Source: a bacterium (GTDB lineage Bacteria; UBA10199; 2-02-FULL-44-16; JAAZCA01). Taken from it: a stretch of 64,000 nt of DNA. The position numbers and the translations under genes are program-made. Shown here piece by piece: positions 1 through 32,424 of this stretch. The notes beneath the pieces were generated by a model, which worked only from the letters and a program-made list of their open reading frames with translations, ran no database searches and was not told the origin of the DNA. Positions within the stretch are counted from its first letter, which is position 1; each line of letters starts with the position of its first letter. The stretch is taken from positions 512,001 through 576,000 of the forward strand of contig CAXXGI010000001.1 in NCBI GenBank assembly GCA_963674695.2, read 5' to 3'.

Positions 1-3000
1 CCTGCGTCTCACACACCGGCCAGGCCCCCATCATGGTCGACTGGATCGTGAAGGCCTCCTCGCCGAAACGATGCCAAACGACGCGATCGGTAAAGCTGTA
101 GGCAAACACCGTGAAGGTCTGGCCCAGTGCATCGGTGATCGAGAGCAGGTTGTGGTTGAGCATCTCCTTGTCCTCCGAAAACCCGGAGGAATAGGCATAG
201 GTCATCGTTGCCCCGCTGGGAGCAGCGGGGGTTGCCGGCTCGCGCGCCTCGATCAGGTTATGCGAGGCATCATAGGCAAACTGCACGCGGCGACCGCTGA
301 AGTCCTCGACCTCGACGAGGCGCCCATCGGCATAGCGAAACGCGATGGCCCTCCCGAGCGTATCGATGACCCGCGAGAGGCGTTTCTCCGCCCCTTCGCC
401 CTCGTATTCCAGGGCGATGCGATTGCCGAAACGATCCTCGATGGCGGTGCAGAAACCGTCGGCGCCATAGCGGTGGACGAGCCCCTCGCGGTCGCGGATG
501 ACAACGCTCCCGTCCGGCTGCACCCGCAGGCGGTCGAAGAACCCGAGCGGGGCTTCAAAATAACCGCCCTCATCATGATACGTGTAGGCATCGTAGCGCG
601 CGCGGCCATCGAAACGGATATAGCAGGCGGCATATCCTTCGGGCTTTTCCTCCCACTCCACCCCTGCGCAACAGGCATCGAGCGGATGCTCCTCGCAATA
701 GGCGGCGTCGACCCTGAGCAGACGCTTGTTAAAGCTGTGGTCCCAGTTGTATCCCATGGGTCCGTCGTATTCGATGCGACTGCGATAAGTGCGCACAAAC
801 TCGAAGTCGATTCCGCGCCCGGGCACCTTGAGCGCCCGCTCGACATGCAACACCTCGCCATTGTGCAACATGATGGGGTCGGTGCGATCGACCACGGTGG
901 GGTCACCATTTGCAGCACGATCCTGCGAACTCTTGTCTCCCATATCATCCTGTTTCAATAATCCTCCGGCCGTTTCGGATTTCCCCTCATCCCCTACACC
1001 GAGCGCCTCATCGATATCCTTCTCGACCTGGTCGGACAAATCATATCCGGTATCATCAGCCGGGTTATTTTCGGCCCAGTTCCCATCCTCATTCGCCGTC
1101 GTTGCGGGGGCGTCATCGATGGCCGGTCCATTTCCACCGGAGTCATCCCCTTCCAGATCATCATCACCAGAAAAATCCAGCCCCCCAAGACGCCACCACT
1201 CATTTGAATCGCCATCACCGGTCGCACTCAAGCCTATAGAATCATCACGATTCAATTCGTCCAGCAGTGCTTCGTCATCCTCTTCGCCATCATCGCACTC
1301 ACCCTCTTCACAGCGGCGCTCCTCGGCGCCCATGCCGAAGAGGAAGGGATGCTCCAAGGGATTGGGCTGATCGATCGACAGATCGACGCCGACAAACGAC
1401 GGCAAATTGAAGAGGAAACCGGCGATGATCCCCACAAACGGCGAAACCGACATGCTCGGCCCATCCATGAGGCCACCGCCGCCCAGCGAATCGTTGAAAA
1501 AATCGCCCGCACCACCGATGTCGACCGGACCATCCATCCCCCCGCCGCCCATACCGCCACCGATGGGGCCACCGCCGAGGGAAAACCACCCGAAGACATC
1601 CTGCGCCCCGAAGGGATTGTTGCTCAGAAAACTATAGGGGTTGACGCCCTCGCCCGCAGGATCCGGCGAGATAAAGCGCCCGACCGTCGGGTCGTAATAG
1701 CGTCCGCCAAAGTAGAGAAAGCCGGTTTCATCATCGTAGTGTTTCCCCGCAAAACGATAGGCGTTCTGATCGTCAGCAATCGAGAAAAGGACATTTCCAA
1801 ACGGATCGTAGCGATAGCCGCCGGTCACCTTTCCTCGCTCATCGGTCGTGAGCAACGTGGAGCCGGATTCATTGACGTGATAATAGTCGATGCGCTCGCC
1901 ATCGATGGCGGCAAGACGATAGCCGGAGAAATAGATATAATCCCGTTCAACCTCGCCTGCTGCATTCATCCTCGAGAGCGGATCGAGCGATTCCCCATAG
2001 AGCGCATAGGAGGCAACACCCGAACGAAGCCGCTTTTCCCGGCGCCCGAGGGAATCATAGGCGTACTCGTGAATCGCCTGGACCGCTCCATCCGAATCGA
2101 GCGTCTCCACCTGGATGAGATGCCCCGCATTGTTCCACTGAAAGCGCTGCCCCTGGGTGAGCACACCGTTTCGAAAATGGCGGCGTTGGATAAGCCGACC
2201 GAAGTCGTCATAGTCATAGCGCCAACCCTCACCATCGCTATATTCCGCCCGAAGCAGAAAACCCGTCTGTGGATCATAGGTATACGAGAGCGTCTTGAAC
2301 GCATCGCTGGAGCTGATGCGATTTCCATCCGCATCGTAGGCATAGCGCTGCACTGCATGCGGCTCCGATTCGTTCGCCTTGTAATAGGCCGCTTTCGTCA
2401 GCCGGTCAGCATCATCATAGGCATAGGTCACCCGGGAGCTGTCATGATAGATCGCCTCGATGCGCCGCCCGCGTTGATCGTAGGTGAGTTCCTCATGATA
2501 GTATTCCTCGGCACCCTTTTGGGTGAACACCTCCACCAAGAGATCGCCCACATAGCGATAGATCGTCGCCGTACCATTTCCGTAATCGATGCGCTCCACG
2601 CGCCCACGATCGTCATAGGAAAGAGAGGCAACGATAGGGCCATCGATACGCATGAGTCGTATCTCAGAGACACGCCCCTGGGCATCGGTCATATAATAGA
2701 CTGATCGCCCATCGGCATAAGTGAGTCGATAGGGCTTTCCATTCACATCCTGCACCATGCCGATGCGATAGGTCGTGTCCAACTCATCGATCGTACGCTC
2801 GAAGAAAGCGAGCGAACCGGATGGGGTATAGGTGAAATCCGTCTGCCCAAGGGGATCGTCGATGTTCGTCAGACGCCCCTTTCCGTTTCGCGCGTCCTCT
2901 TCGGCATCATACGCATAGGTCACATCATAGGGAACGCCGCTGCCGCCGAGCGCCACCGCAGCGACATCGTTCCAGACCTGATGATAGTTGAACGACTGGC

Positions 3001-6000
3001 GCTGGTCGGTACCATCGAAGACGATGGCCGCAGCTCGGCCGTTCGGAGCCCACTGTTCGACCTGCATCGAAACACCGGTGGAGAGCGAGGCCGAGACCGT
3101 ACGCGAAAGCCCATCGACAACCCAGGTGGAAGCACGCCCTGCCGGCGTCTTCTTTTTGATGCGTCGACCGAGGGCATCATAGGAATAGTCGACGGCCAGA
3201 GGGCCACTGGGAAGCATGCGCTCATCGCGCAGGAGTTTTCCTGCGATATTGAAATAACGATTGCGAAGGTTTACTGCGCCCACATGGGCTGCCTGGCGCA
3301 AGGATGTCGTTTGGGCCCCCTCGGAACCAATATTGACCGCATCATAGGTGAACTGCACCGTCCCGGTATCGGAGCGGGTGATAGCCGAGAGGCGATCATG
3401 AACGTCATAATGATATACTGCGCTGGCTTCGCCCTCTTTAACCCTCTGGATCTTACCTCGATCGTTGTAAGTATATTGGCGATCGACACCGTCGCCGATC
3501 TCGCGAACGATCCTCCCGAAACCATCGAGATGCCGTTGTGTTTCGGTTGTCTGCGCCCGCACCTGGTCAAATCGCGTAACGACGACTTCGGGCTGCAAAA
3601 TTGTCTGCAAACCGGTGTCGTCCTTGCGCGTCATGGAATAGGCATATTCGCGGAAGGATCCGTTCGTCCCATACAGCACACGATGCAAGCGTCCAGCACC
3701 ATCATAATGATAGGACTTCCACGCCCCGTTCGGGTTCTCCTCGCGCCTGAGATGCCCAGAATCATCATATTCGAACAACCAGGACGCCTCGGCGACCGTG
3801 TTCTCTGTCGGAAACAGTCGCTTCTCATCATAGCCGAAAAGAATCGACTCCTGATCGTGCACCCCGCTTCCATCTTCATATGAACGTCTTTTTTCGGTGA
3901 CGTTTCCCTGTGCGTCGTAGCAAAAGGCCGTAACCATGGCATCGCCGCCATCAGATGTACGCACACGAGCGAGCACCGTATTCGAAAGCAGATTGCCACA
4001 GGCATCGGCCCCACCCCAGGCATACTCCGTGCGGCGCTGGTGCTGAATGCCGTTAGCATCGGTAAAGAGGTCAATGCGTTCACCAGGCTGCGTGGAATCC
4101 TCAAATGTAATCTGCACTTCCTCTTCCGTCATCGGTGAGCGATAGGTGAACGTGGTCGCTCCCGGATAGGAAAATTGGGTCTGGCTTCCATCGGGTCGTT
4201 TTATGAGGGTTGGGTGTCGTGAAATCGTCGCCTTATCATAGGTCGAATCGAGGATAAAATTCTGATTTTCGTAGCGAATATTCTGCGTTTTTGGCCCGCG
4301 CACGAACCACTGTTTCCCGTCGTTATCTGTGCGTACACCCCAGGCATAGTCGAACGTCGTTTCACGATACGATGCATTCGACTCCTTATATGGTTCGATA
4401 CGAAACTTCGGACTCCCCCCAACACGGCTGGCAATCTTTTTTAAAACCGGCACATCATTCTTCTGTTCGAAGAGATGCGCCCGCTCAACCCCGCTCGTCT
4501 CGAACGTGATGCTCGCCCGATGGATATCTTGCAGATCCTCCCACGCGGGATCAATGACGACCATGCGTTGCTGAAAAACAGTCTCATCGGATGCATTCGG
4601 CCAGGCCGTGACAAAGACGGTCCGACTCGTCCTCTTCTTCTCATTCGGATCACCTGTTTTCTCATACTGCTCATAGCGCAGAACCGCGTTCGTTGGATAC
4701 TGTGCTTCAAAAAAAGCGCGCATTCCTCCCACATCATCCTTGTTGGGGCCATGGCTGAAGGCCAATGGCGTCTGCACGGGAAGTGAAGAGGATTCCACCT
4801 GATAGGAAAAATGCGTACTCTCGTTCGCTCCGTTTGCATGACGAACGATCTTTCCCTGATCGTTGAGAAAATAACGGTTTATCGGACTAGCCGTTCCCTC
4901 CCCTGAAAATGTCGGTCCGTGGACACTCCAGGCGAGCATATTCTTGCTGATCGATACATTCCTCGAAAGCCCCTCGTCAGCAACTCCAAGATGGTCCTGG
5001 ATTTCCAGACTGCGGTTGTCATCGGCATATTCATAGGTCCGTTTGTTGCCGAAGGCATCCTGCGTGGAGACGAGGCGATAGGAATCGATACGAAAGAAGG
5101 GGATGTTCCTGGCGTGAACGATTTTTGTCTCTGTGCTCAGAGGGCTATTTTGCCCTGAGAATGCATCTTGACCATCATATCTCGCATCCATGCCATTCAT
5201 GCATGTCCCAGATCCGGCATAGCATGCATCCAGCCTTCTAACGCCGACCGTAAGAAGATATCCTTCCTTCCCCTCAAACGCATATACATTTCCATCTGAC
5301 GACACATATTCAACGCCATCGACGGCATCATCATGCCACTGAACATTCCGTCGTTCACTACAATCAACCGAATAACCCTGAATATCGGGGTCAGCACACT
5401 CCGCATACGGTTGATCCCCGACGGAATCAGACCCATGATAATAACGCATGACGCCATCGCCCTGGGGATGGCCGGAGACGTTCATTCCCTTATGATCGAA
5501 GAGTTCCAGGCGGCCATCGTTGTGAACGAGATAAGCTATGCGTTTCCCCTGGAGCGGTTTTTCGGAATCGTCCTCCTCCTTCGGCGCATAGGGATAGATC
5601 TGCGTCATGATGATGATGCCAGCATATTCCCCCCACCAGAGATACATCCCATCCGATGCACTCGGCTTCCACCGAAGAACATTTTCAGTTGCATTCGTCT
5701 CGTAGGTGAGCACACCCAACGGTGCGAGCGGATCAAGCAGAAGATCGTGTTGAACAGGTTCGGCATCATAGGCCGGAACGTAGTCCTGCGTCGACTGAAT
5801 CGACTCACTGACGGCATGTGCGGCATGGCCATCGAAGGCAATGCGATAGCTATTTTCATGTTCAACACCCAGCGTGCTCAGCTCAACCGTTTCGGTCGCA
5901 TAGGTGTGACCAATGGCAAGATCTCTTGAGAGTCGTCCTGGTATCTGAATATCAGTTTTCGAAATAACGAGACCACCCGAATACATATCGATGCGTTCGC

Positions 6001-6193
6001 CGTTGGAGAGCACATCGAATGGTTCTTCGAGAAAAGATTCGGTGCTGCCAAAACCAAAGAGGGGGATATCGACGAAGGGATCGGATGATGCATGAGCAAA
6101 CCACGCGCAGGTCATGGCGATCAGGAGCACAGTGAAATGAAGTCCCGCTTTGCGAATGATGGTTTGCGCGATATGTCGAAAACCAGGGAACAT
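1..6193 (-). CDS. Giant secreted Rhs/YD-repeat protein with two tandem Rhs units (3'-truncated by window edge)
   Basis: Not in the ORF track because there is no stop inside the window. My hand translation from ATG 6193 is open to base 1. It shows a signal peptide (MFPGFRH...LLIAMTCAWFAHA), YD repeats, the Rhs core RYYDPTVGRFISPDP...NPYSFLSNNPFGAQDVFGW at ~1586-1705, then a second DUF6531-like start DPIMLHNGE...PGRGIDFEFVRTYRS...GPMGYNWDHSF at ~880 and more YD repeats. Confidence 0.9.
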   Translation of the reverse strand, partial: MFPGFRHIAQTIIRKAGLHFTVLLIAMTCAWFAHASSDPFVDIPLFGFGSTESFLEEPFDVLSNGERIDMYSGGLVISKTDIQIPGRLSRDLAIGHTYATETVELSTLGVEHENSYRIAFDGHAAHAVSESIQSTQDYVPAYDAEPVQHDLLLDPLAPLGVLTYETNATENVLRWKPSASDGMYLWWGEYAGIIIMTQIYPYAPKEEDDSEKPLQGKRIAYLVHNDGRLELFDHKGMNVSGHPQGDGVMRYYHGSDSVGDQPYAECADPDIQGYSVDCSERRNVQWHDDAVDGVEYVSSDGNVYAFEGKEGYLLTVGVRRLDACYAGSGTCMNGMDARYDGQDAFSGQNSPLSTETKIVHARNIPFFRIDSYRLVSTQDAFGNKRTYEYADDNRSLEIQDHLGVADEGLSRNVSISKNMLAWSVHGPTFSGEGTASPINRYFLNDQGKIVRHANGANESTHFSYQVESSSLPVQTPLAFSHGPNKDDVGGMRAFFEAQYPTNAVLRYEQYEKTGDPNEKKRTSRTVFVTAWPNASDETVFQQRMVVIDPAWEDLQDIHRASITFETSGVERAHLFEQKNDVPVLKKIASRVGGSPKFRIEPYKESNASYRETTFDYAWGVRTDNDGKQWFVRGPKTQNIRYENQNFILDSTYDKATISRHPTLIKRPDGSQTQFSYPGATTFTYRSPMTEEEVQITFEDSTQPGERIDLFTDANGIQHQRRTEYAWGGADACGNLLSNTVLARVRTSDGGDAMVTAFCYDAQGNVTEKRRSYEDGSGVHDQESILFGYDEKRLFPTENTVAEASWLFEYDDSGHLRREENPNGAWKSYHYDGAGRLHRVLYGTNGSFREYAYSMTRKDDTGLQTILQPEVVVTRFDQVRAQTTETQRHLDGFGRIVREIGDGVDRQYTYNDRGKIQRVKEGEASAVYHYDVHDRLSAITRSDTGTVQFTYDAVNIGSEGAQTTSLRQAAHVGAVNLRNRYFNIAGKLLRDERMLPSGPLAVDYSYDALGRRIKKKTPAGRASTWVVDGLSRTVSASLSTGVSMQVEQWAPNGRAAAIVFDGTDQRQSFNYHQVWNDVAAVALGGSGVPYDVTYAYDAEEDARNGKGRLTNIDDPLGQTDFTYTPSGSLAFFERTIDELDTTYRIGMVQDVNGKPYRLTYADGRSVYYMTDAQGRVSEIRLMRIDGPIVASLSYDDRGRVERIDYGNGTATIYRYVGDLLVEVFTQKGAEEYYHEELTYDQRGRRIEAIYHDSSRVTYAYDDADRLTKAAYYKANESEPHAVQRYAYDADGNRISSSDAFKTLSYTYDPQTGFLLRAEYSDGEGWRYDYDDFGRLIQRRHFRNGVLTQGQRFQWNNAGHLIQVETLDSDGAVQAIHEYAYDSLGRREKRLRSGVASYALYGESLDPLSRMNAAGEVERDYIYFSGYRLAAIDGERIDYYHVNESGSTLLTTDERGKVTGGYRYDPFGNVLFSIADDQNAYRFAGKHYDDETGFLYFGGRYYDPTVGRFISPDPAGEGVNPYSFLSNNPFGAQDVFGWFSLGGGPIGGGMGGGGMDGPVDIGGAGDFFNDSLGGGGLMDGPSMSVSPFVGIIAGFLFNLPSFVGVDLSIDQPNPLEHPFLFGMGAEERRCEEGECDDGEEDDEALLDELNRDDSIGLSATGDGDSNEWWRLGGLDFSGDDDLEGDDSGGNGPAIDDAPATTANEDGNWAENNPADDTGYDLSDQVEKDIDEALGVGDEGKSETAGGLLKQDDMGDKSSQDRAANGDPTVVDRTDPIMLHNGEVLHVERALKVPGRGIDFEFVRTYRSRIEYDGPMGYNWDHSFNKRLLRVDAAYCEEHPLDACCAGVEWEEKPEGYAACYIRFDGRARYDAYTYHDEGGYFEAPLGFFDRLRVQPDGSVVIRDREGLVHRYGADGFCTAIEDRFGNRIALEYEGEGAEKRLSRVIDTLGRAIAFRYADGRLVEVEDFSGRRVQFAYDASHNLIEAREPATPAAPSGATMTYAYSSGFSEDKEMLNHNLLSITDALGQTFTVFAYSFTDRVVWHRFGEEAFTIQSTMMGAWPVCETQ

Positions 6194-6271
6194 GAGCACC
6201 CTATCGATTACCTCTGGTCATATCGCATATGACAGAAGTGTAAATGTGACAGATGTCTCTTCAACCCATAT

Positions 6272-10866: not shown

Positions 10867-13854
10867 CTAGTTAAGATCGCCCATGTCGACGGGGATGGGC
10901 GGAGGAATGCCCGGACTCATCTGCTGAGAAAAATCGATCACCTGTTTCACATAGGCATAGCTCAGCCCGCCGGGATACGAACGGCCTGGAAGCGTAAAGA
11001 CATCGGCATCATATTCAAGATCAATCGTTCGCAAGCTGCGACCATCTCGCAGGAAGGAAAAGGTATCACCCGAATAGGCAATACGCCATTCATCCGGGCA
11101 CATCACGGCGCGGTCATCCTTTCCATCGCCATCAAAATCTGCCGCCATCGGATGACACTTACCCCCGCCATAGACGTTGTCCGGAGGAAGGAACGTAAAC
11201 GAAGCAAAATAATCGCTGACAAACGCCACGCTCCACTTTTCAGATGTATTATCCTTGATCGCCGGAGCGCTCCAAGAGCTGTCAGGATCAAAACGACCAG
11301 GAACCGGAATCGCTTCATTCCCGCCATAGATTGGGTTCGCATACTCCATGATATTAAATGTTCCATTTGGATATGTCAGCCCTACCATTGTCCCTTCATC
11401 GACCAAACCATCCGGATATTTATAACTGAAATACGGAGAATGTTCTGTCATATTCGAATAGTCATGGCCAAAGGCGAGATATGCCCAACCGGGGGCCTGC
11501 GCCAACTCTTCATCGGACAGATATTCGAATTCAAATTCATATCCCGAAAAATTGCTTTCGTCCGTACCACCATAATCGACGCGCCATATGCCATCGGAGC
11601 AGGCAATGGCGATGTCCATAAAACCATCTTCATCGTAATCACCCAACGCTGGGCGGCTGTAGTTGGAGCAGTTCGGACCTGTACGTGTGGTGCAGGAGAG
11701 CGGGTCGAGTTTGAGGTCATCGACCCATTGGGCGCTGTAGTCGAGTTCCCAGTCCCAGCCGTGCCACTCGTTACGGCGCAGGATATCGACATCGGTGAAG
11801 GCGATATAAAAGGTGCCGTGTTCCTTGTCGTAGACCACGAAGTCGCTGCGACCGTCGGCGTTCACATCTTCCACATAGGGCCAGACCCAGCGTCCGTCGA
11901 TGGGATCGTGTGCGATCTCGACATCCCAACTGCCAAACCCATCAGCCGCCTCGCCGATGGACGAGAGGTCGAGCTTCCAGGTGCCGTTGGTCCACTGCAC
12001 GAGGTCAGCACGCCCATCGCCGTCGAAGTCGTAGTGATCGGCAAAGCCGGTCTGCGGCGTGAAGAGCTCTTCGTCCGGACAGATCGGATCGGAGTTCACA
12101 AGATCACCCTCTTTGCAGATGATGCCGATGCCCGCCTGGCGCAGGGCGATCATGCGCTCTTCGGTGAGGATCTCGCCGGAATCGAGCTCGGGATATTCGG
12201 CGCGCATCTGGGCGAGAAAGGTATCGACCGCTGTCATCGCCACATCGATGCGCGGCTGCGTGCCGATGTTGCAGCCCGCATCGGTCTGATTGACCCCCGA
12301 GCCAACGATGATCTCGCGCATCTTGGGCGGCATGAGGTAGCGCTTGTAACCGAGGTCATTGCGCGCATAGCTCTGCACGAGCACCGCCGCACCGCCGACG
12401 ATGGCCGCCGCCGACGAGGTGCCGCCGAAGTTATCGATGAAGTAGCTGTTGATCTCGTCGTTGGGCGGGATCGGTCCCTGCGTGCCGTTCCAGGCATAGA
12501 GACCGTATTCATACCCCGTGGTCACAACGCCCTGCCCCCAGGAGAAACTATTCACGCGGGAACCGCAGTTGGAAAACGAGATCTTCGATTCATTCGCGCC
12601 TTCGCTCGCGCCGACGAGAATGGAACCTGAGTCTTCCACCGACAGATCTTTTGCAAAGGCCCACTCTTCACCGCTGTAGAGTTCGGGGTTATCAAAATCC
12701 ATTGAACCATTGGCAGCGGCGGAAATGACCGTCACACCGTAGGCCGTGGCCTGCTCAATCGCCGCAAAGTCCTCAGGCCACAGCTCGCGCGGCATACATC
12801 CATACTGATCGCTCGCATACACACCGGAACAACCGTCAGCAAACTTCCCCGGGAGCTGCATCTCGATCACCCAGATGGATCCAGGTTCGAGGTCGTCGTC
12901 TAAAATGGTATTTGGATCATCTATGCCGTCCGTCGACGAATTGATCAGACCATATGATCCACCCGACTCATGCAACAAAAACGCATCCGGCGCAAAGCCC
13001 GTGACGCCATGACCGTTATTGAGCGCCACCATCACGCCCGCCACGGCTGTGCCGTGTGCAATGGCCGATTCACAGTTGGGAATCTGTGGTTCAAAGCCCG
13101 GCGCGCAGTCCGGATAGAGGAAAAAGTTTCCGCCCTCGCTATGCCGAGTAGCGATGAGACCCAGGTCCTCGTGGTCGAAGTTCATGCCGTGTTCATTGTC
13201 GACGACGGTCACACCTTCGCCCGTCGCCCCCGCGTTCCAGGCGGCGTGGGCGTTCAACCCCCCGTGTGTCGATTCGGGAAAGAGATATCCCTGCAGGCCG
13301 TCGAGCGCAGGGGTTGCGGCCAGCCCCGAAGGCGAGCCCTGCATGCCGGGATAGACCTTGGTCACGCCCTCCATGCCGCGCAGCTCGTTCAAGAGCGCGA
13401 TGGCGTCCTCGGCGCTGTTCGTCTCGATGTGATAGATGGAATTCCAATCGGTGAGCTGCTTGCCCGAGAGCCGCTCGAGCTTGGCGCGCCGCGCGTCGAC
13501 GATATCGGCGTCGGCTTCAACCGTGCGCACGATGCGCGATTCCGGAAAACGCTTGATCGCGTTTTCAACCGAGGCGATGAGCGCCGCTTTGTTCGTGGAG
13601 GTGGTGAGGGCTTTGGATTCGTTCATGCGCACCGCGAGCGCGTCGTCGAAGTGGACGACCAGATGACCCGCGTAGGCATCGGACTGAATGAGCGCCGCCA
13701 TCGTCGTGTGCTCGCCCGCACCCACGTCCGGTTCCGGAGCACTTTCTGGTGAAGGATTACTTCCGCCACCGCAGGATGCGGATGCGATCATCATCGCCAT
13801 CGCACATGCCAGCAGCGCGGACCGTGTTCCCGTCACATCGGTCAGATGTGTCAT
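10867..13854 (-). CDS. Subtilisin-like S8 serine peptidase lipoprotein with C-terminal FG-GAP/VCBS repeats
   Basis: Lipobox ASASC; catalytic D (VVDNE), H (AHGTAVAG) and S (FGGTSSAA); DFDGDGRAD-type repeats. Start chosen at ATG 13854 after a G-rich RBS. Confidence 0.9.
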   Translation of the reverse strand: MTHLTDVTGTRSALLACAMAMMIASASCGGGSNPSPESAPEPDVGAGEHTTMAALIQSDAYAGHLVVHFDDALAVRMNESKALTTSTNKAALIASVENAIKRFPESRIVRTVEADADIVDARRAKLERLSGKQLTDWNSIYHIETNSAEDAIALLNELRGMEGVTKVYPGMQGSPSGLAATPALDGLQGYLFPESTHGGLNAHAAWNAGATGEGVTVVDNEHGMNFDHEDLGLIATRHSEGGNFFLYPDCAPGFEPQIPNCESAIAHGTAVAGVMVALNNGHGVTGFAPDAFLLHESGGSYGLINSSTDGIDDPNTILDDDLEPGSIWVIEMQLPGKFADGCSGVYASDQYGCMPRELWPEDFAAIEQATAYGVTVISAAANGSMDFDNPELYSGEEWAFAKDLSVEDSGSILVGASEGANESKISFSNCGSRVNSFSWGQGVVTTGYEYGLYAWNGTQGPIPPNDEINSYFIDNFGGTSSAAAIVGGAAVLVQSYARNDLGYKRYLMPPKMREIIVGSGVNQTDAGCNIGTQPRIDVAMTAVDTFLAQMRAEYPELDSGEILTEERMIALRQAGIGIICKEGDLVNSDPICPDEELFTPQTGFADHYDFDGDGRADLVQWTNGTWKLDLSSIGEAADGFGSWDVEIAHDPIDGRWVWPYVEDVNADGRSDFVVYDKEHGTFYIAFTDVDILRRNEWHGWDWELDYSAQWVDDLKLDPLSCTTRTGPNCSNYSRPALGDYDEDGFMDIAIACSDGIWRVDYGGTDESNFSGYEFEFEYLSDEELAQAPGWAYLAFGHDYSNMTEHSPYFSYKYPDGLVDEGTMVGLTYPNGTFNIMEYANPIYGGNEAIPVPGRFDPDSSWSAPAIKDNTSEKWSVAFVSDYFASFTFLPPDNVYGGGKCHPMAADFDGDGKDDRAVMCPDEWRIAYSGDTFSFLRDGRSLRTIDLEYDADVFTLPGRSYPGGLSYAYVKQVIDFSQQMSPGIPPPIPVDMGDLN

Positions 13855-14079
13855 GGGACCCCCCTTCAAAAAATCCGCTTGCTTTTTGCACTATTAGCAC
13901 CCATGTCGCACCGCGGCAAGAGTTTTCCACAGGCTGGGCACCTCCCCTTTTCGCGAGTTTTTTCAAAAAGTTGCGTAGTTTTTGGGGGGAAGTGGGGGTT
14001 GACGGGCGTTATCAGGCAACACAACGTCTTATTCATTGAAATATAAGGAGATATTACAGGCATCGCCGATAACAGCTGT

Positions 14080-26121: not shown

Positions 26122-29100
26122 CTAGTCCACCACATGTATCGTATCGACCGGATCGCCGAGGCGGTCGAGGGCGATCATGGAGACGGCAAGCGATTCGATC
26201 TGGTCGTCGTCGGCGCGCAGACAGCCGAAGGTGGGATGGCGGAAATCGCGGCGGCCGCCGTGGAGGAAGAGCGCGCGGCGCTGGGCGATGGCATCATCGG
26301 CCTCTGTCCCGAGCTCGCCGGCGAAGAGGCGAACGCGGCCGAAGCTCACGGCATATTCCTCCACGCCCGCACCCTCGCGACGGCTCGTCCACGCCGCGCC
26401 GCCGGCGCGGCTCTCGCCCGCGATCACCTCGCGCAGGCCATAGCGATCGTAGACCTGGGCGCGATACTGCGCGTTGATGAAGTCGGGGACGCCGATGGAA
26501 TAGGTGCCGTTCGGAAAGGGACCGTTGGCGCCGATCGCGAGCGGGTCGGCCTTGGGTCGCGTCACGTTGTTGGCCACATCGTATTCACCGAGGGGACCGT
26601 AGTCTTCGCTCATGAGCCACATCCGTTCGACCGAGCGCTGAAAGAGGATCCAGGCCAGGCCCAGGATATCGACAAAGCGCGAAGGATCGGCGTTGGCATA
26701 TCCATAGCGATTCGCATCGGGCGCACGCGAATCGAACTGCGGCCGCGCAAAGAGGCGACCGAAGGGAAGGACGCCGTAGTCGGCGGAGATGTGCATCGGC
26801 CGATTGGGGAAAGTCGTGCGCGCCGCGCCCCCCTGTCCGGCGTGCAGGGAGAGCGCGGGCACGATGGCGAGCGAGACCCGCGCCCGATGCGGCGTCTTGA
26901 TGCCGAGCGGATCCGGCGTGAAAAAGCGCGCATGCTGCGGGCTGTAGACGCGCTCGCGCATATCGACGAGACCCGTGCGACGATCGAGGTCGTGACCGGC
27001 GAATGACGCGGTCCCTTCGCAATCGGGCAGCGGTTCGCCATACGGGGCATACCGACAGCGCGATGCGATGGCGCCGTCCTGCACGGTGGCGATGCGCGAA
27101 CCGATGCGATCGCGCAGGAGCAGGCGCGTCTCATCGCCGTCGAGCGTTGCGAATGGAAACGAGGCGCCCTCGGCGAAGAGATGCGCGGCACTCGTCTCGG
27201 CACCCTCGTCGGCGATGCGCAACCAACCGTTCCAGAGGTGACGACGCTCTCCCTCCGACGTCACCGAGCGCACGCGGCGGTCGAAGGCATCGTAGAAGTG
27301 GTGCGCGATCTCCCCCTCGCCTTCGAAGACATGCGTCAGACGATTGAAGGCATCGTAGACATACCGGCGCGACCCGTCGGCGATGAGGTTTCCGCTTGCA
27401 TCGGAGCGCTGCACATCGGCATTCGAAGCAGAAACCCCTTCGATCAGGTTGTCGGCGGCGTCATAGGCATAGCGCCAGGTCTGTCGAGCACCCGGAGATT
27501 CGTCGGTAACTCCGACAAGCCGTCCCACGCCATCGCGCTCGAAGCGACGCACGTGATCGTCGATGCGCTCCTGCGCGAGGAGACCGTCGGCGCCGAAGGC
27601 AAGCTCCCTCGTCAGGAGTGGCTTTGCCCCTGCAACGGTCGCGCGCTGCACATGACCGATCGCGTCGCGCTCGAAACGCTCTTCAACGCCATGGGAAAAT
27701 TGGACGCGTGCAATTGCACCGCGCGAATCGGAGGTGAACGACGCCACGCGATCGGCGCCAACCATCACGCTCACCAATCGTCCCGCCTGATCGCGCAGAT
27801 ACGAGACGGTCGGCCCCGTCGGAGAGTGAAGCGCCACCATACGCCCTGCGTCGTCGAAGGTACGCGTGATCCACGCATCATTTTGCATCTCGGCCACAGG
27901 GCGTGAGAGGGAATCGTAGCGGATGTGCACGCGCGCCATTGCGATGGGATCGGCGATGGCGCCGGCATCCACCGCGCGCGTCAGGCGCCCGAGACCGTCG
28001 TAGGTGAATTGCTGCATTCCCGAGACCGCCCGACTCTCCGCGCGATAGATCTCGCGGCGCATGAGATGTCCCCCCTCGTCGAAGCGTTGGCGCAGGCGCG
28101 AGCCGTCGCGCATCTGCGCACCCACGACGTGATCCTCTTCGTCGTAGGCCAGGCGCGTGCGAGCGCCATCCGGAAGGATCGTCTCGATCAGACGCCCGAG
28201 GGCATCGTAGCCAAACTGCGTCGCATCTCCCATGGCATCGATGAACTGCACGAGGCGATCGTCGGCGCCCCAACGCTGGCGCATCGTCGTTTTGATCTCG
28301 CCCCCCGCACGCGTCACCGTGACACGCCGGCCCAGGTCATCCATCGCAAAACGCAGCGCCCTGTCGCCGGGGGCAATCGCCTCGCGCAAAAAGCCCTGAT
28401 CGTCGTACGCATAGCGCCAGGCGAGGTCTTCCCCCACCGTCACTGTCCGCGGAAACCCCGCATCGGAGTAGGCGATGCGCATCCGATCGAGGCACTTGCC
28501 CTCGGCGTCGATGCAGCTCTCGGTGACGCGCCCGCTCGCATCGCGCTGGAAGACTCGCCGCACACCGGCGGCATCGATCCGGGCGACGAGCAAACCGCGC
28601 GCGTCATACTCGAAGCGTTCCACCGCGCCGGTCGGATCGATCGATGCGATGAGCCTGCCCGCACCATCGTAGCGATAGTGTTCATCGACCCAACGACCGC
28701 GGGCGGGATCCTCGCGCCAGAGCAGGCGTGAGCGCCGCACGAGATTCCCATTCTTATCGTAGACGGCGCGCGCGTGTGCGAGGAGCACACCCTTGGCATC
28801 GACGTCCCGTCGTTCGACGATGCGACCGAGCTTGTCGCGGGCGTATTCCGTGCGGTTCCCCCGAGCATCGATGACAGCGATCACCTCGCCGAAACCGTTG
28901 CGCTGCATCCGCGTGCTGTTCCCGTTTCCGTCGATGAGGGCGATGACCGCACCATCGACATCGCGCTCCACGCGGCGTTCGGAGCGCTCGAGCGAATCGG
29001 CCCCGCGCACGACGCCGCGCACGCGTCCGAGGGCATCGCGCTGCCACACGGTGACGCTTCCACCCGGGGCGATGGCGCGCACCATCCGTCCGGCGCCGTC

Positions 29101-32100
29101 ATAGACCAATCGCCTTTCGCGCATCTGTTCGGGCGCGACCTGCTCGCGCTGTACGGTCAACCGATCGAGCACATCGCGGGCGAACTCCCAGCGCAGCTCG
29201 TGGCCCTCGCGCTCGGTGATGACGGCGACGAGGGCGTCGTTGGCATCGAAGCGATAGCGCAGGCTGGCCAACCCCGGGCGATCCTCGCGCACGATGCGAT
29301 TGCGGGCGTCCAACTGAAATTGCTGCACGGAACCGTCGGGATGGTTGATCGAGGTGATATTCCCCACCGGGTCGTAGGCGAAGCGGCGTTCATCGCCCGC
29401 ACCGCGATCGATGGCGGCGAGATAGCCGCCGGCCTCCGACGCATCGGCGAACGCGTCTCGCGCCAGGTCGTCGCCGTCCGGATCGGCACTCGGATAATAG
29501 CGATACGCGATCGCGACATGCGCGCCGTCGACTTGGCGCGTGAGCTGGCCGAAGCGATCGTGCGCGAACGTCCAGAGGCGCTGCCACTTCCCCTCGTCTT
29601 GCGCGCGTCGCTCGATGGCCATGAGGTCAGCCGCCGCGTTTTCCGCATACACGAATCGCGTCTCGACATGCTCCGGATTGCGCATCAGGTGGGGGCGACC
29701 AAAGCGCGGCTCATAGGCGATGCGCGTCACACGGCTCGCGCCGCCACCGGCGGGTTCATCGACGATGCGCACAGGGCGGTCGATCTCGTGTCCATAGCGA
29801 AAGAGGCGGCAGCGCCCCGATGGGAGGCAGTCGCGCGTGCGCTCACCGCGCCCATTATAATGATAGCGTCGAATGAGGCGATAGGTCCCCTCGTCGAGCC
29901 ACCAGAGGCGCGTGAGGTGCCCGGCCGCATCGTGCTCGTAGAGGCGCGTGGTGCCCACCGCATCGGTGATCCAGGTGCGCGAAGCGACCATGCCCTGCCC
30001 CGGCCCATAGCGCGCATGCATCCAGGAGGCTCCGCCATAGCGCTGCGCGACGATGCGGCGCTGCGCATCGAAGCGATTCTGCAGATAGACCTCCCCCTTG
30101 GCATCCATGATGAGGGTGAGCAGGTGCGCGCGCGGATCGTTCTCGGGCACGCGCGTGTAGCGATAGGCGGTGGTGGTGCCCTGGGGGAATCCCGGAACCG
30201 CGGGCGCGGTCACGCCGATGAGCTCGCGCCGATCGTTGTAGGCATACCGAAAGGTGCGGTCGGCGAAGTCGGTGAGCGATGCGATGAGACCGTCGGCGCG
30301 ACGCGCGATGCGAATGCGCCGACCGAAGACATCGATGATCGTGGCGAGCAGACCCGCATCATTATAATGGAAGGCCAGACGATTGCCGTGGCGATCGATC
30401 GTTTCGATCAGGCGGCCCTCGCGATCGAAGCGCGTGATGAGGCCATCGCGCGCGCGCAGCTCGAAACCGCCCGGCACACGCACGAGCTGCGCATCGCTCC
30501 CGGGCGGAGAGACAAACCCCTCGCCATCGGCACGGAAGAAAAATTTAGCACCGCGCGCGTCGATATGCGTGAGCCCGTCGTGCGTGCCGTCGTTCCAGGG
30601 ACGCAGGTGCTGGGCGTAGCTGTGCGTCCAGCCCCAACCGAACTCGCCGAGGAAGGGACGCGCGCCGCGATAGATGCGCGCGAAGGACAGGTTGAGCCCG
30701 CGCCCGGGGATGACGAGGTCGACCGTCTCGTTGACATACATGCCCGTGGCGGTGAGCACCGGGTCGAGCTCCTCGGAGACGCTCGGGTTGAGCGCGGGCT
30801 CGGCCTCGACCTCCATGATGTCGGCCACGGGACCCAAAACGCGCAGATCGTCGAGCGCCTCGGTTGCGATCTCGGCGATCTCTTCGGAAACCGCGTCGTT
30901 GGCTGCATGCAATGCATCGCGCACCGCCTGCACTTCATCACCGATCTCATCGATCGGGCGCCAGTTGCCGTCCTCACCCAGGAGCCCCCCTTCGAGACCC
31001 GCGCGATCGAGGAGTTCATCCCAGGAGGCGGGGATACCGTTGAACGCATCCGGCACCAGGTCGGCCAGTTCATCCGCACCGCGATCCATCGCGCGCGCGA
31101 GTTCATCGATGCGCTCGCGCATCGGTCCGACAATGCGCTCCTGAAGATCGGTGAGTTCGCGCCCAATCTCATCGGTCACGCGTTCGAGTTCAGCGCTGAT
31201 TTCATCGAGCGGTTCGTTGAGCAGGGCATCGATGCGGTCGGCCTGTTGCTGCAGACGATCGAACGGCTCGGCCAACTCCTCGAGGATCCCGTCGAACTCG
31301 GGCGCAAAGCCGGCGACCCAGGCGACATCGCGCGCAAGAGCGGCCAACTGCATGAGCGAGAGGTTGATCGCTTGGCGATTGCGCACCTGCCAGAGCATGA
31401 CGCGCATGACCTCCATACCGCGACGCAGCTCAAAGGGATCGACGGTCATCCCCATATACGCACGTGCGAAATGAGCTGCTGCCGAGGCAGCGAGCATGGC
31501 GGCATAAGCGGGCGTGGGGAGTTTTATCGCCGGGCGATTGAGGATGGAGTCGCGTAGGTTCTGCAACGCCTCGCCCGGAAAATATTGGCGCGCCTCATCC
31601 ACATATCGCTCGAACGCTTCGGGTCCGGCCTGCAATGCCTGCATGGCCTCGGGCGGAAGATTTCCCTCAAGGGCATCGCTGATGCGCGCGCGCAGAGCCG
31701 CAACCGTCCCCTCGCCCACGAGCGCCCCCGTACTCGCAGCGAGATAATCGGCGAAGGTGTCGAGCGAAAGACCGGTGCGGATCGTCTCGCGCAGGTCGGT
31801 GAGCTGCACCCAACTGGGCACGCCGCGCTCACGCGCGAGCGCTTCGAGACGAGAGAGAGCCTGGTCATAGAAACCGGATGCAAGCGCATCGACCTGGTCA
31901 TTGAGGGATATTTCGAGTTCAGCGACGACGCGTTCGGCAATCGCCTCCGCCTCACGGGCGACCTCCTCGCCCACCGCGCGCGCGAAGAGTTCGTCGACCA
32001 CGAGGCGTCGGACCTGGCCGGGCAGCCACGCTCGGAGACGCTGCGCAAACTCCGCCTTCACGGCCTCTTTGAGCGCCACGTCGACGCGGCCGAAGAACGG

Positions 32101-32424
32101 CGCCGACGACGCGCCGCTGCGATGGCGCTCGGCCGCGGTCGCGATGGCATCGACCATCCAGGTGCGCCCCTCCTCGGAGAGCGCGCGAGCGAGCGTGCGA
32201 CGCGCGAGCCCCTCGACATAGCCGGCAACACCGTCCATGGCAGAGCTGTTTGCAATGGCGGTGACATTGCCATCGGTCAGCCCACCAAATTCAACCGTTT
32301 CGGCGGAAGAGGCGAAACCCACCCCTGCGATGAGCACGACTGCGCTCGCGACGACGCCGACACACCACTGTACGACCCAATTCATGCGCGCATGCAATGC
32401 AAGAACCAAGCCAACAAGGCTCAC
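26122..32424 (-). CDS. Rhs/YD-repeat protein with N-terminal signal and helical region and C-terminal L,D-transpeptidase-like (Tlde1/YkuD-type) domain
   Basis: DUF6531-like DPVLTATG..PGRGLNLSFARIY..GWGWTHSY; YD repeats; core ending DPSRFVDILGL; tip GPFPNGTY...LFLHGG..HPTFGCLR. Confidence 0.9.
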   Translation of the reverse strand: MSLVGLVLALHARMNWVVQWCVGVVASAVVLIAGVGFASSAETVEFGGLTDGNVTAIANSSAMDGVAGYVEGLARRTLARALSEEGRTWMVDAIATAAERHRSGASSAPFFGRVDVALKEAVKAEFAQRLRAWLPGQVRRLVVDELFARAVGEEVAREAEAIAERVVAELEISLNDQVDALASGFYDQALSRLEALARERGVPSWVQLTDLRETIRTGLSLDTFADYLAASTGALVGEGTVAALRARISDALEGNLPPEAMQALQAGPEAFERYVDEARQYFPGEALQNLRDSILNRPAIKLPTPAYAAMLAASAAAHFARAYMGMTVDPFELRRGMEVMRVMLWQVRNRQAINLSLMQLAALARDVAWVAGFAPEFDGILEELAEPFDRLQQQADRIDALLNEPLDEISAELERVTDEIGRELTDLQERIVGPMRERIDELARAMDRGADELADLVPDAFNGIPASWDELLDRAGLEGGLLGEDGNWRPIDEIGDEVQAVRDALHAANDAVSEEIAEIATEALDDLRVLGPVADIMEVEAEPALNPSVSEELDPVLTATGMYVNETVDLVIPGRGLNLSFARIYRGARPFLGEFGWGWTHSYAQHLRPWNDGTHDGLTHIDARGAKFFFRADGEGFVSPPGSDAQLVRVPGGFELRARDGLITRFDREGRLIETIDRHGNRLAFHYNDAGLLATIIDVFGRRIRIARRADGLIASLTDFADRTFRYAYNDRRELIGVTAPAVPGFPQGTTTAYRYTRVPENDPRAHLLTLIMDAKGEVYLQNRFDAQRRIVAQRYGGASWMHARYGPGQGMVASRTWITDAVGTTRLYEHDAAGHLTRLWWLDEGTYRLIRRYHYNGRGERTRDCLPSGRCRLFRYGHEIDRPVRIVDEPAGGGASRVTRIAYEPRFGRPHLMRNPEHVETRFVYAENAAADLMAIERRAQDEGKWQRLWTFAHDRFGQLTRQVDGAHVAIAYRYYPSADPDGDDLARDAFADASEAGGYLAAIDRGAGDERRFAYDPVGNITSINHPDGSVQQFQLDARNRIVREDRPGLASLRYRFDANDALVAVITEREGHELRWEFARDVLDRLTVQREQVAPEQMRERRLVYDGAGRMVRAIAPGGSVTVWQRDALGRVRGVVRGADSLERSERRVERDVDGAVIALIDGNGNSTRMQRNGFGEVIAVIDARGNRTEYARDKLGRIVERRDVDAKGVLLAHARAVYDKNGNLVRRSRLLWREDPARGRWVDEHYRYDGAGRLIASIDPTGAVERFEYDARGLLVARIDAAGVRRVFQRDASGRVTESCIDAEGKCLDRMRIAYSDAGFPRTVTVGEDLAWRYAYDDQGFLREAIAPGDRALRFAMDDLGRRVTVTRAGGEIKTTMRQRWGADDRLVQFIDAMGDATQFGYDALGRLIETILPDGARTRLAYDEEDHVVGAQMRDGSRLRQRFDEGGHLMRREIYRAESRAVSGMQQFTYDGLGRLTRAVDAGAIADPIAMARVHIRYDSLSRPVAEMQNDAWITRTFDDAGRMVALHSPTGPTVSYLRDQAGRLVSVMVGADRVASFTSDSRGAIARVQFSHGVEERFERDAIGHVQRATVAGAKPLLTRELAFGADGLLAQERIDDHVRRFERDGVGRLVGVTDESPGARQTWRYAYDAADNLIEGVSASNADVQRSDASGNLIADGSRRYVYDAFNRLTHVFEGEGEIAHHFYDAFDRRVRSVTSEGERRHLWNGWLRIADEGAETSAAHLFAEGASFPFATLDGDETRLLLRDRIGSRIATVQDGAIASRCRYAPYGEPLPDCEGTASFAGHDLDRRTGLVDMRERVYSPQHARFFTPDPLGIKTPHRARVSLAIVPALSLHAGQGGAARTTFPNRPMHISADYGVLPFGRLFARPQFDSRAPDANRYGYANADPSRFVDILGLAWILFQRSVERMWLMSEDYGPLGEYDVANNVTRPKADPLAIGANGPFPNGTYSIGVPDFINAQYRAQVYDRYGLREVIAGESRAGGAAWTSRREGAGVEEYAVSFGRVRLFAGELGTEADDAIAQRRALFLHGGRRDFRHPTFGCLRADDDQIESLAVSMIALDRLGDPVDTIHVVD

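Follow-up and report, generated by a model that had tools for sequence, protein, structure and literature searches.

The stretch of DNA analysed here (the window; 64,000 nucleotides, C1:512001-576000, where C1 is contig CAXXGI010000001.1) carries at its left edge part of a minus-strand gene for a 3,396-aa Rhs protein. This protein is a tandem: two complete Rhs units, each with its own DUF6531-type start, YD shell and TIGR03696 core, follow one another on a single polypeptide and are joined by a 235-aa linker. A preliminary description of the window had recognized the tandem and had proposed a nested arrangement, in which the second Rhs protein is the cargo of the first cage. Our analysis bears out the tandem and speaks against the nesting. 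A reading in which the two cages lie side by side is well supported, and on sequence comparison the architecture looks like the product of an old fusion between two different Rhs lineages. The features concerned are listed below; plain numbers are window positions, numbers with the prefix C1 are contig coordinates, and amino acid (aa) numbers refer to the 3,396-aa protein.

1 to 6199, minus strand: window part of the tandem Rhs gene, an open frame that reaches the left edge.
6086 to 6199, minus strand: start codon, then a probable signal peptide for Sec export (aa 1-38, with its end at AHA/SS), read by eye.
1811 to 6001, minus strand: shell part of Rhs unit 1 (the unit being aa 67-1538), with a DUF6531-type start and YD shell, from Pfam, a local hidden Markov model (HMM), AlphaFold2 (AF2) and Foldseek.
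1586 to 1810, minus strand: core 1 (aa 1464-1538), from TIGR03696 and a motif comparison of 19 sequences.
881 to 1585, minus strand: linker (aa 1539-1773, 235 aa), from composition, alignment and AF2.
1385 to 1441, minus strand: hydrophobic, Gly-containing 19-mer in the linker (aa 1587-1605; Kyte-Doolittle mean 1.76).
707 to 883, minus strand: start of unit 2, with TDPIMLHNGE at aa 1773-1782 and DUF6531 at aa 1774-1831 (Pfam, E 6.7e-15).
2 to 706, minus strand: the first of the YD repeats in the shell of unit 2, from Pfam RHS_repeat, AF2 and Foldseek.
aa 1774-3229, minus strand: unit 2 as a whole, from DUF6531 through core 2.
C1:508513-508767, minus strand: core 2 (about aa 3145-3229; TIGR03696, 77.0 bits).
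C1:508012-508512, minus strand: 167-aa C-terminal region (CT; aa 3230-3396), between core 2 and the stop codon.
C1:507794-508012: 72-aa candidate immunity open reading frame (ORF) with two hydrophobic stretches, overlapping the stop codon of the tandem gene.

Inside the window, the minus-strand frame at 2-6199 is open over 2,066 aa. Traced into the genome, it extends for 3,991 bases past the left edge of the window, through the remaining unit 2 shell, core 2, the CT and a stop codon. The whole gene spans C1:508009-518199 and contains no stop or frameshift, in agreement with the earlier claim that one frame passes through the linker into a second unit. Its start is a GTG at window position 6199, and the database gene call (P0003, 3,394 aa) begins at a Met two codons further on. 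A genome-level profile search gave two TIGR03696 matches (cut-off 32.5 bits), both of them in one open frame of 3,402 codons. As had been noted, the gene is missing from the ORF track of the window, since its frame leaves the window edge and is listed only if open-ended frames are allowed. The motifs, coordinates and linker composition of the preliminary description were all correct.

Judged by Pfam, TIGR01643, partial AF2 shells and Foldseek, both units are YD/RHS-repeat beta-cocoons. Over the whole protein, the Pfam family RHS_repeat matched 15 stretches (E 1.4e-107) and the NCBIfam model TIGR01643 matched nine. Unit 1 (1,472 aa) opens with a degenerate start, GERIDMYSGG (aa 67-76), which has neither the Pro nor the acidic residue of the motif; Pfam gave a weak DUF6531 match at aa 67-118, and the local HMM also matched here. 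Across the homologues, unit 1 starts follow the pattern GE-x-[IV]-[ND]-L-x-x-G-[NG], with the Pro or acidic residue present in none of the 13 recognizable cases. The unit closes with core 1 (80.6 bits, C1:513589-513810), in which the motif RYYDPTVGRFISPDP (aa 1500-1514, window 1658-1702) and QDVFGW (aa 1533-1538, window 1586-1603) retain both putative catalytic acidic residues, D1513 and D1534, as originally described. Unit 2 (1,456 aa) then begins afresh with its own DUF6531 match and new RHS_repeat stretches, and it is completed by core 2 beyond the window. The leftward extension that had been suggested therefore counts two TIGR03696 cores and two DUF6531-type starts in a single ORF.

For structure prediction, AF2 worked from alignments that took core 1 and DUF6531 as anchors and comprised 18 and 19 sequences, and each unit was modelled in part only. 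The model of the unit 1 shell (aa 640-1525) reached block pLDDT (predicted local distance difference test) values of mostly 80-93, and that of unit 2 (aa 1786-2663) values of mostly 75-95. The best Foldseek match of both shells was RhsA (7q97), with E 6.2e-39 for unit 1 and 5.2e-38 for unit 2, and the RhsP structures 8h8a and 8h8b appeared among the matches of both. Structure prediction, proposed earlier as a check, thus gave confident partial shells that match Rhs cocoons, and it did not give a position for the linker.

Rhs C-terminal toxins typically comprise only about 100-300 aa. Unit 2 is as large as unit 1, and a cage of about 1,450 aa cannot fit inside another that is equally large; for this reason the Russian-doll reading fails. 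Moreover, unit 2 of the window protein is nearer to ordinary single-cage Rhs proteins than to its supposed container: it scored 485 bits against the single-cage protein P0028 and 322 bits against a 2,100-aa Rhs protein encoded elsewhere in the window, compared with 113 bits against unit 1. When the tandem proteins were compared with each other, unit 1 matched other unit 1 sequences with 278-1321 bits (25-46% identity) and unit 2 matched other unit 2 sequences with 626-1676 bits (32-57% identity), while cross-unit comparisons gave at most 132 bits at about 25% identity. Because the within-unit scores lie so far above the cross-unit scores, the fusion appears to be old and both units appear to have been maintained since. 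We rejected a recent tandem duplication, as the units share only about 25% identity and each of them resembles other Rhs lineages more than it resembles its partner unit.

The 2,100-aa protein is the product of the second Rhs gene of the window (26122-32424, minus strand). It has a single cage, with DUF6531 at aa 554-627, and TIGR03696 matched it only over model positions 1-55. About 55 residues are inserted between RFFTPDP and its end motif VDILGL, which has no Pro. In genome G001 (locus L017), a similar gene of 2,064 aa lies immediately upstream of the tandem gene.

Rhs genes contain repeats and frequently occur as neighbours, and the second Rhs gene of the window lies 20 kb off. A misassembly, or a lost stop between neighbouring genes, could thus be suspected behind the long frame, or unit 2 could be made from an internal start; taken together, we regard these explanations as very improbable. 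The same unbroken frame was found in 10 species genomes and in at least 15 other proteins from different assemblies, and, with only about 25% identity between the two units, collapse of a repeat is implausible. All 19 sequences of our comparison (the window protein, 16 database proteins, and those of G014 and G020) have an open linker despite strong divergence, while the chance that a random stretch of 235 codons stays open at about 58% GC is estimated at roughly 3e-4. A Logan contig from run X1 covers window positions 1-2400 in one piece with 0 differences, and Logan pieces from runs X2 and X3 likewise show 0 differences and no indels. The read check proposed for the linker thus reproduced the junction with no stop or frameshift; since X1, X2 and X3 are from a single study, and X1 is possibly the sample that the genome came from, this amounts only to the agreement of a second assembler. 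The species genomes, the other proteins and the Logan contigs together led us to reject a misassembly or a lost stop.

The layout is also conserved across the phylum and is therefore neither an artefact nor a recent accident. With a 381-aa junction query it was detected in 10 of 93 species genomes, representing 7 of 24 families, where a genome was counted if a core match and a DUF6531 match shared an open frame (2,911-4,128 codons) with about 1 kb between them. The phylum comprises a single class, so that searches at the class and phylum level take in the same 93 genomes. In a collection of 5.8 billion proteins, the junction gave 336 matches, the best 120 of which were classed by local HMM: they comprised the protein itself, 15 other two-core proteins, 102 one-core proteins, one with no core, and P0006, whose record breaks off at a contig end beyond the second DUF6531. 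Among these best 120 of 336, the two-core proteins came first at 168 bits or more and the next match had 92 bits. Source names, where given, were metagenome-assembled genomes (MAGs) labelled Deltaproteobacteria, 'Patescibacteria group' or 'bacterium'. A related-locus search with the junction protein gave two loci, namely a contig of G010 and an unrelated Variovorax Rhs. The layout, which might have turned out to be common already, is confined to one clade in the collections searched. In addition, our searches of openly accessible papers turned up no account of a single chain with two complete Rhs cages.

Unit 2 is best read as an ordinary toxin container with a canonical DPxGL aspartyl autoprotease. 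Core 2 has D3202, D3225 and a DPMGL end, all 17 core 2 sequences compared contain the DPxG motif, and a putative cut lies between L3229 and F3230. The start of unit 2 shows an invariant D-P-x-x-L, with an Asp or Glu seven positions past the Pro in all 19 sequences. A second, N-terminal self-cleavage site is proposed between D1774 and P1775, because this motif matches the signatures reported for TseI (PMC7170923) and WapA-CT1 (PMC12704120) and agrees with the cleavage of RhsA at P305 (PMC8765631).

The CT behind core 2 differs in composition from the rest of the gene. Its GC content is 43.3%, and that of the 72-aa ORF 37.0%, compared with 54.1% for unit 1, 62.1% for unit 2 and 58.5% for the genome. 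Downstream of the tandem genes of G001, G031 and G014 (L017, G001:C5, 318-2940; L018, G031:C3, 669-4434; L019, G014:C3, 2220-3476), five orphan core plus CT cassettes were found, all of the core 2 type; none lies at the window's own locus. The CTs of homologues include Ntox10 (P0018) and TNT (P0019) domains by Pfam. The GC contents, the orphan cassettes and the homologous CTs together suggest that the CT and its small membrane-protein neighbour are a swappable module. Position, composition and homologues suggest that the CT is a toxin, probably a membrane-acting one, and the 72-aa ORF with its two putative transmembrane helices would probably neutralize it. Eight homologous CTs (P0010-P0012 and P0015-P0019) open with an STSAG..N.GAGNP-like motif directly after DPxG[LF], possibly a pre-toxin segment that they share; the window CT lacks this motif.

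The linker, correctly described before as rich in Gly, Asp and Glu, contains 19% Gly, 24% Asp plus Glu and only 4% Lys plus Arg. In all 19 sequences it measures 222-292 aa, with 10-22% Gly and 1-10% Lys plus Arg. Alignment showed that both of its ends are conserved. The N-terminal end carries G-G-G-M-[DE]-G-[PG] motifs (here G-G-G-M-D-G-P motifs at aa 1551-1558 and 1575-1581) and a hydrophobic Gly-rich stretch, and the C-terminal end reads ...GGL..D.P...VQ...N... up to the D-P of unit 2; the middle is variable, acidic and of low complexity. With a threshold of 1.2 for the Kyte-Doolittle mean over 19 residues, a hydrophobic segment is present in the first 80 linker residues of 13 of the 19 sequences. 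In the window protein this 19-mer is a candidate membrane-active or lumen-binding element. AF2 placed aa 1526-1785 below pLDDT 50 and the linker itself at 20-37 in both models, which predicts disorder. No Pfam family matched the linker at E up to 0.1, and a search of 1.84 billion representative proteins gave 0 matches at E up to 0.001, where composition filters may suppress such a low-complexity query; the linker does align across close homologues.

The preliminary description had also considered that the acidic linker might itself be the first cargo. Extended to its full form, the whole linker would be an independent first toxin inside cage 1, and the polyprotein would deliver two toxins in containers that separate fully after cleavage. 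We consider this decidedly unlikely. Its length range does resemble that of the CTs behind core 2 (98-275 aa without P0008, whose record stops two residues past core 2), it occupies exactly the position expected of a cargo, it has cleavage motifs on both sides, and its hydrophobic segment, rich in Gly, is reminiscent of Tse5 and other Rhs cargoes that form pores (abstract of PMC10684867). However, just one small candidate immunity ORF follows the gene, and none of the five orphan cassettes beside the tandem genes of relatives is a linker or core-1-type cassette. The GC content of the linker (57.9%) is native, unlike that of the CT, and its ends are conserved in distant members without an abrupt break in identity past the core. 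Among proteins of 30-1,866 aa, none matched aa 1500-1773 as a form with only unit 1 and linker would, with the 8,000 best word-sharing candidates scored for this low-complexity query. By analogy with RhsA, moreover, the C-terminal end of the linker would be expected inside cage 2 and not cage 1. Native GC, steady length, conserved ends and the lack of orphan linker cassettes indicate that the linker is a native part of the carrier; the idea of a first cargo is likely to hold at most for its N-terminal, Gly-rich and hydrophobic part.

How the protein might be exported is suggested by its N-terminus, which to the eye has a basic n-region, a hydrophobic core and a site at AHA/SS. A similar basic, hydrophobic and AxA-type N-terminus was seen by eye in about 10 of the 16 homologues compared; P0004, P0009, P0014 and P0018 have no such N-terminus, and those of P0019 and P0013 are of another type. 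A probable signal peptide would be in keeping with Sec export. The genome is rated 100% complete, and within it we found 0 matches to the sheath protein VipB/TssC (PF05943) of type VI secretion systems (T6SS) and 0 matches to PAAR (PF05488), which Pfam did not find in the protein either. The tandem protein therefore lacks the combination of PAAR, prePAAR or VgrG with a T6SS that marks T6SS-dependent Rhs effectors. The genome does carry three secretin genes.

Our best explanation, held tentatively and at slightly less than an even chance, is that the gene encodes a conserved, Sec-exported polymorphic toxin with two complete cages side by side, in which unit 1 and the linker are accessory, the CT is a horizontally exchanged toxin and three cuts are made. 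Unit 1 and the linker are best read as a conserved accessory module that replaces the PAAR, transmembrane domain (TMD) and VgrG-binding N-terminus of T6SS Rhs effectors. Core 1 would cut between W1538 and F1539, and the first approximately 70 linker residues, with the Gly-rich motifs and the hydrophobic segment, would stay protected within the cage 1 lumen. The linker's acidic middle would exit cage 1, and its conserved C-terminal end would enter cage 2 via the plug and be cut between D1774 and P1775, as in TseI, RhsA and WapA-CT1. With the core 2 cut between L3229 and F3230, four pieces would result (cage 1, thread, cage 2 and toxin), which would stay joined as a dumbbell until a target is met. 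This mechanism is modelled on RhsA, in which TMD, linker/seal, N-terminal cut, cage, core, C-terminal cut and toxin follow in this order (PMC8765631). In the window protein, the order is hydrophobic segment, linker, D-P, cage 2, core 2 and CT, with an extra cage and its protease core in front. By analogy, that extra cage could shield the hydrophobic segment.

The conserved motifs fit self-cleavage into separate containers, as had been proposed. In core 1, the first Asp (xDP) and the Gly are present in all 19 sequences, and the second catalytic position is acidic in all of them; this retention of acidic residues argues for cleavage, with the putative site after W1538. Several observations weigh against the favoured mechanism. 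The end of core 1, DVFGW, is a Pro-less variant of DPxGL, and the Pro is absent from core 1 in all 19 sequences, a hydrophobic residue or Gln standing in its place. At the second catalytic position 15 sequences have Asp and four have Glu. Owing to these two changes, core 1 may be inactive. The start of unit 2 has only the first of the two glutamates of TseI; in TseI and PSPTO_5438 both glutamates matter and the second is essential (PMC7170923). Six of the 19 linkers have no hydrophobic segment above the threshold, including those of close, genus-level relatives (P0006 of G010 and P0007 of G001). The AF2 models give no placement for the linker, and the mechanism requires the chain to leave a closed cage 1. 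The window CT matched no Pfam family and had no sequence relative in the PDB at E up to 1, nor any relative besides itself among proteins of 1,867-5,943 aa. Finally, the signal peptide was judged by eye only.

The changes in core 1 also bear on a different view of unit 1. In a teneurin, the chain exits the shell past the core and continues outside. Unit 1 could likewise be a non-cleaving structural or adhesion shell that stores nothing, from which the chain exits into a linker that serves as a flexible spacer presenting unit 2. We think this unlikely, while taking it seriously. The loss of the Pro and the Glu substitutions would be expected of such a shell, as would the disorder predicted for the linker, its membership of no family and the six linkers without a hydrophobic segment. 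The closest single-core relatives of unit 1 among the matches listed (P0038, P0054, P0066 and P0095; 157-176 bits) all have an internal rather than a terminal core, and three of them (P0038, P0066 and P0095) carry domains behind it that could not be housed in a cage. On the other hand, all 19 sequences conserve the first Asp, the acidic residue and the Gly, which is unexpected if proteolysis were dispensable, and conserved Gly-rich and hydrophobic elements stand immediately behind core 1. Furthermore, a Pro-less end is not restricted to internal cores, since VDILGL closes the terminal core of the window's single-cage Rhs protein.

In the cage-first Rhs proteins P0095, P0034, P0066 and P0038, which count among the nearest single-core relatives of unit 1, DUF6531 lies at about 60-160 and the core at about 1100-1200, and 1,870-2,320 residues follow the core; in P0054 about 900 residues follow it. 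The post-core domains of P0095, P0038 and P0066 are laminin-G, cadherin-like, F5/8 type C or Ig-like by Pfam. A hydrophobic segment lies within about 50 residues past the core in P0095, P0038 and P0066, immediately after it in P0095 and P0038, and is not evident in the stretch of P0034 shown. The four internal-core proteins suggest a wider, undescribed Rhs class.

Eag proteins act as chaperones for T6SS Rhs effectors. Within the two-cage explanation, cage 1 might play an Eag-like role as an intramolecular chaperone that shields a Gly-rich membrane-insertion segment; the thread, freed by two self-cleavages, would bridge the two cage lumens in a self-contained dumbbell that needs no T6SS, and its release from cage 1 would anchor or open cage 2 at the target membrane. 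This version is speculative, and we consider it unlikely.

The nearest published cases are WapA-CT1 and the RhsP dimer. WapA-CT1 of Streptococcus suis is a Sec-dependent Rhs toxin of more than 3,000 aa with 'two Rhs domains', in which three conserved cut sites and four fragments were shown experimentally (PMC12704120). Its first cut falls just before the Pro of the DUF6531 start, between E735 and PINLNTGNF, and its middle cut at a TDPSG site with no linker; in the model of its authors, both Rhs domains make up a single beta-barrel column that has one DUF6531 lid and, at the opposite end, one TIGR03696 core (PMC12704120). The junction of D1774 and PIMLHNGE corresponds in position to the E735 site. 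Unlike WapA-CT1 as described there, the window protein has two DUF6531-type starts, two cores and a disordered 235-aa linker, and hence two closed units. WapA-CT1 also has LysM and cell-wall-binding domains and belongs to a Gram-positive bacterium, whereas Pfam found no such domains here and the genome encodes secretins.

With the T6SS Rhs effectors RhsA and TseI, the window protein shares the YD cocoon, the N-terminal plug, the C-terminal aspartyl-protease core and, at the level of motifs, N- and C-terminal autocleavage. RhsA of P. protegens is cleaved at P305 and encloses its C-terminal toxin, which is largely disordered inside (PMC8765631), and in TseI of A. dhakensis the sequence PVSMVTGEELL follows the N-terminal self-cleavage site (PMC7170923). 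The TMD and linker/seal upstream of the N-terminal cut of RhsA have a counterpart in the hydrophobic segment, linker and D-P before unit 2. Differences are the probable signal peptide (by eye) in place of prePAAR/PAAR, the lack of PAAR and of a T6SS sheath gene in the genome, and the whole additional Rhs cage that precedes the upstream region of the container. For RhsP of V. parahaemolyticus, dimerization after proteolysis is reported to matter for killing (reviewed in PMC10433429). There too two Rhs cages come together; in RhsP, however, they are identical cages in a non-covalent antiparallel homodimer, while here two long-diverged cages (about 25% identity) stand on one chain.

The BC components of Tc toxins (TcdB2-TccC3, YenBC) also form a YD cocoon, in which a core domain cleaves and the unfolded cargo is stored. 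The Tc cocoon is one cage built from two proteins, and teneurins have one shell. Unlike Tc BC components, the tandem protein has no SpvB, TcdB-middle or beta-propeller domains by Pfam.

The tandem gene is flanked by genes for S8 subtilisin-like proteases, one at C1:505178-507706 (minus strand; 842 aa, its N-terminus resembling a signal peptide to the eye) and one at window 10867-13869 (minus strand; 1,000 aa, with FG-GAP repeats). Farther downstream, a protein of at least 1,383 aa has FG-GAP, FlgD-Ig and CHU_C domains. Judging by these proteases and this protein, secreted or surface proteins are plentiful around the tandem gene. In P0019, an apolipoprotein N-acyltransferase (LNT_N and CN_hydrolase, aa 17-463) stands in frame before the tandem Rhs, and the open frames of G014 (L019:3674-16057, minus strand) and G020 (L020:1522-11019, plus strand) begin with similar membrane-helix sequence. 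Either Lnt and Rhs are truly fused, and the protein would thereby be anchored in the inner membrane, or two neighbouring genes share a frame. In the Lnt-linked subclade, Glu replaces Asp in core 1 and the linker segment reaches its highest hydrophobicity.

To our knowledge, every solved Rhs cocoon is a single container with its core domain pointing into its own lumen. A conserved chain that continues past core 1 into a second cocoon raises the questions of how it leaves a closed cage and what, if anything, cage 1 holds. The family offers a natural system for studying Rhs toxin delivery without type VI secretion, a question that also arises for WapA, and it adds to what is known of the repertoire of an uncultivated phylum. 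Should cage 1 indeed shield a membrane-active segment, the Rhs fold would have a new use, as a built-in chaperone instead of a toxin container. Internal-core Rhs proteins, including the cage-first proteins with about 2,000 aa of adhesion domains, would then constitute an unrecognized class.

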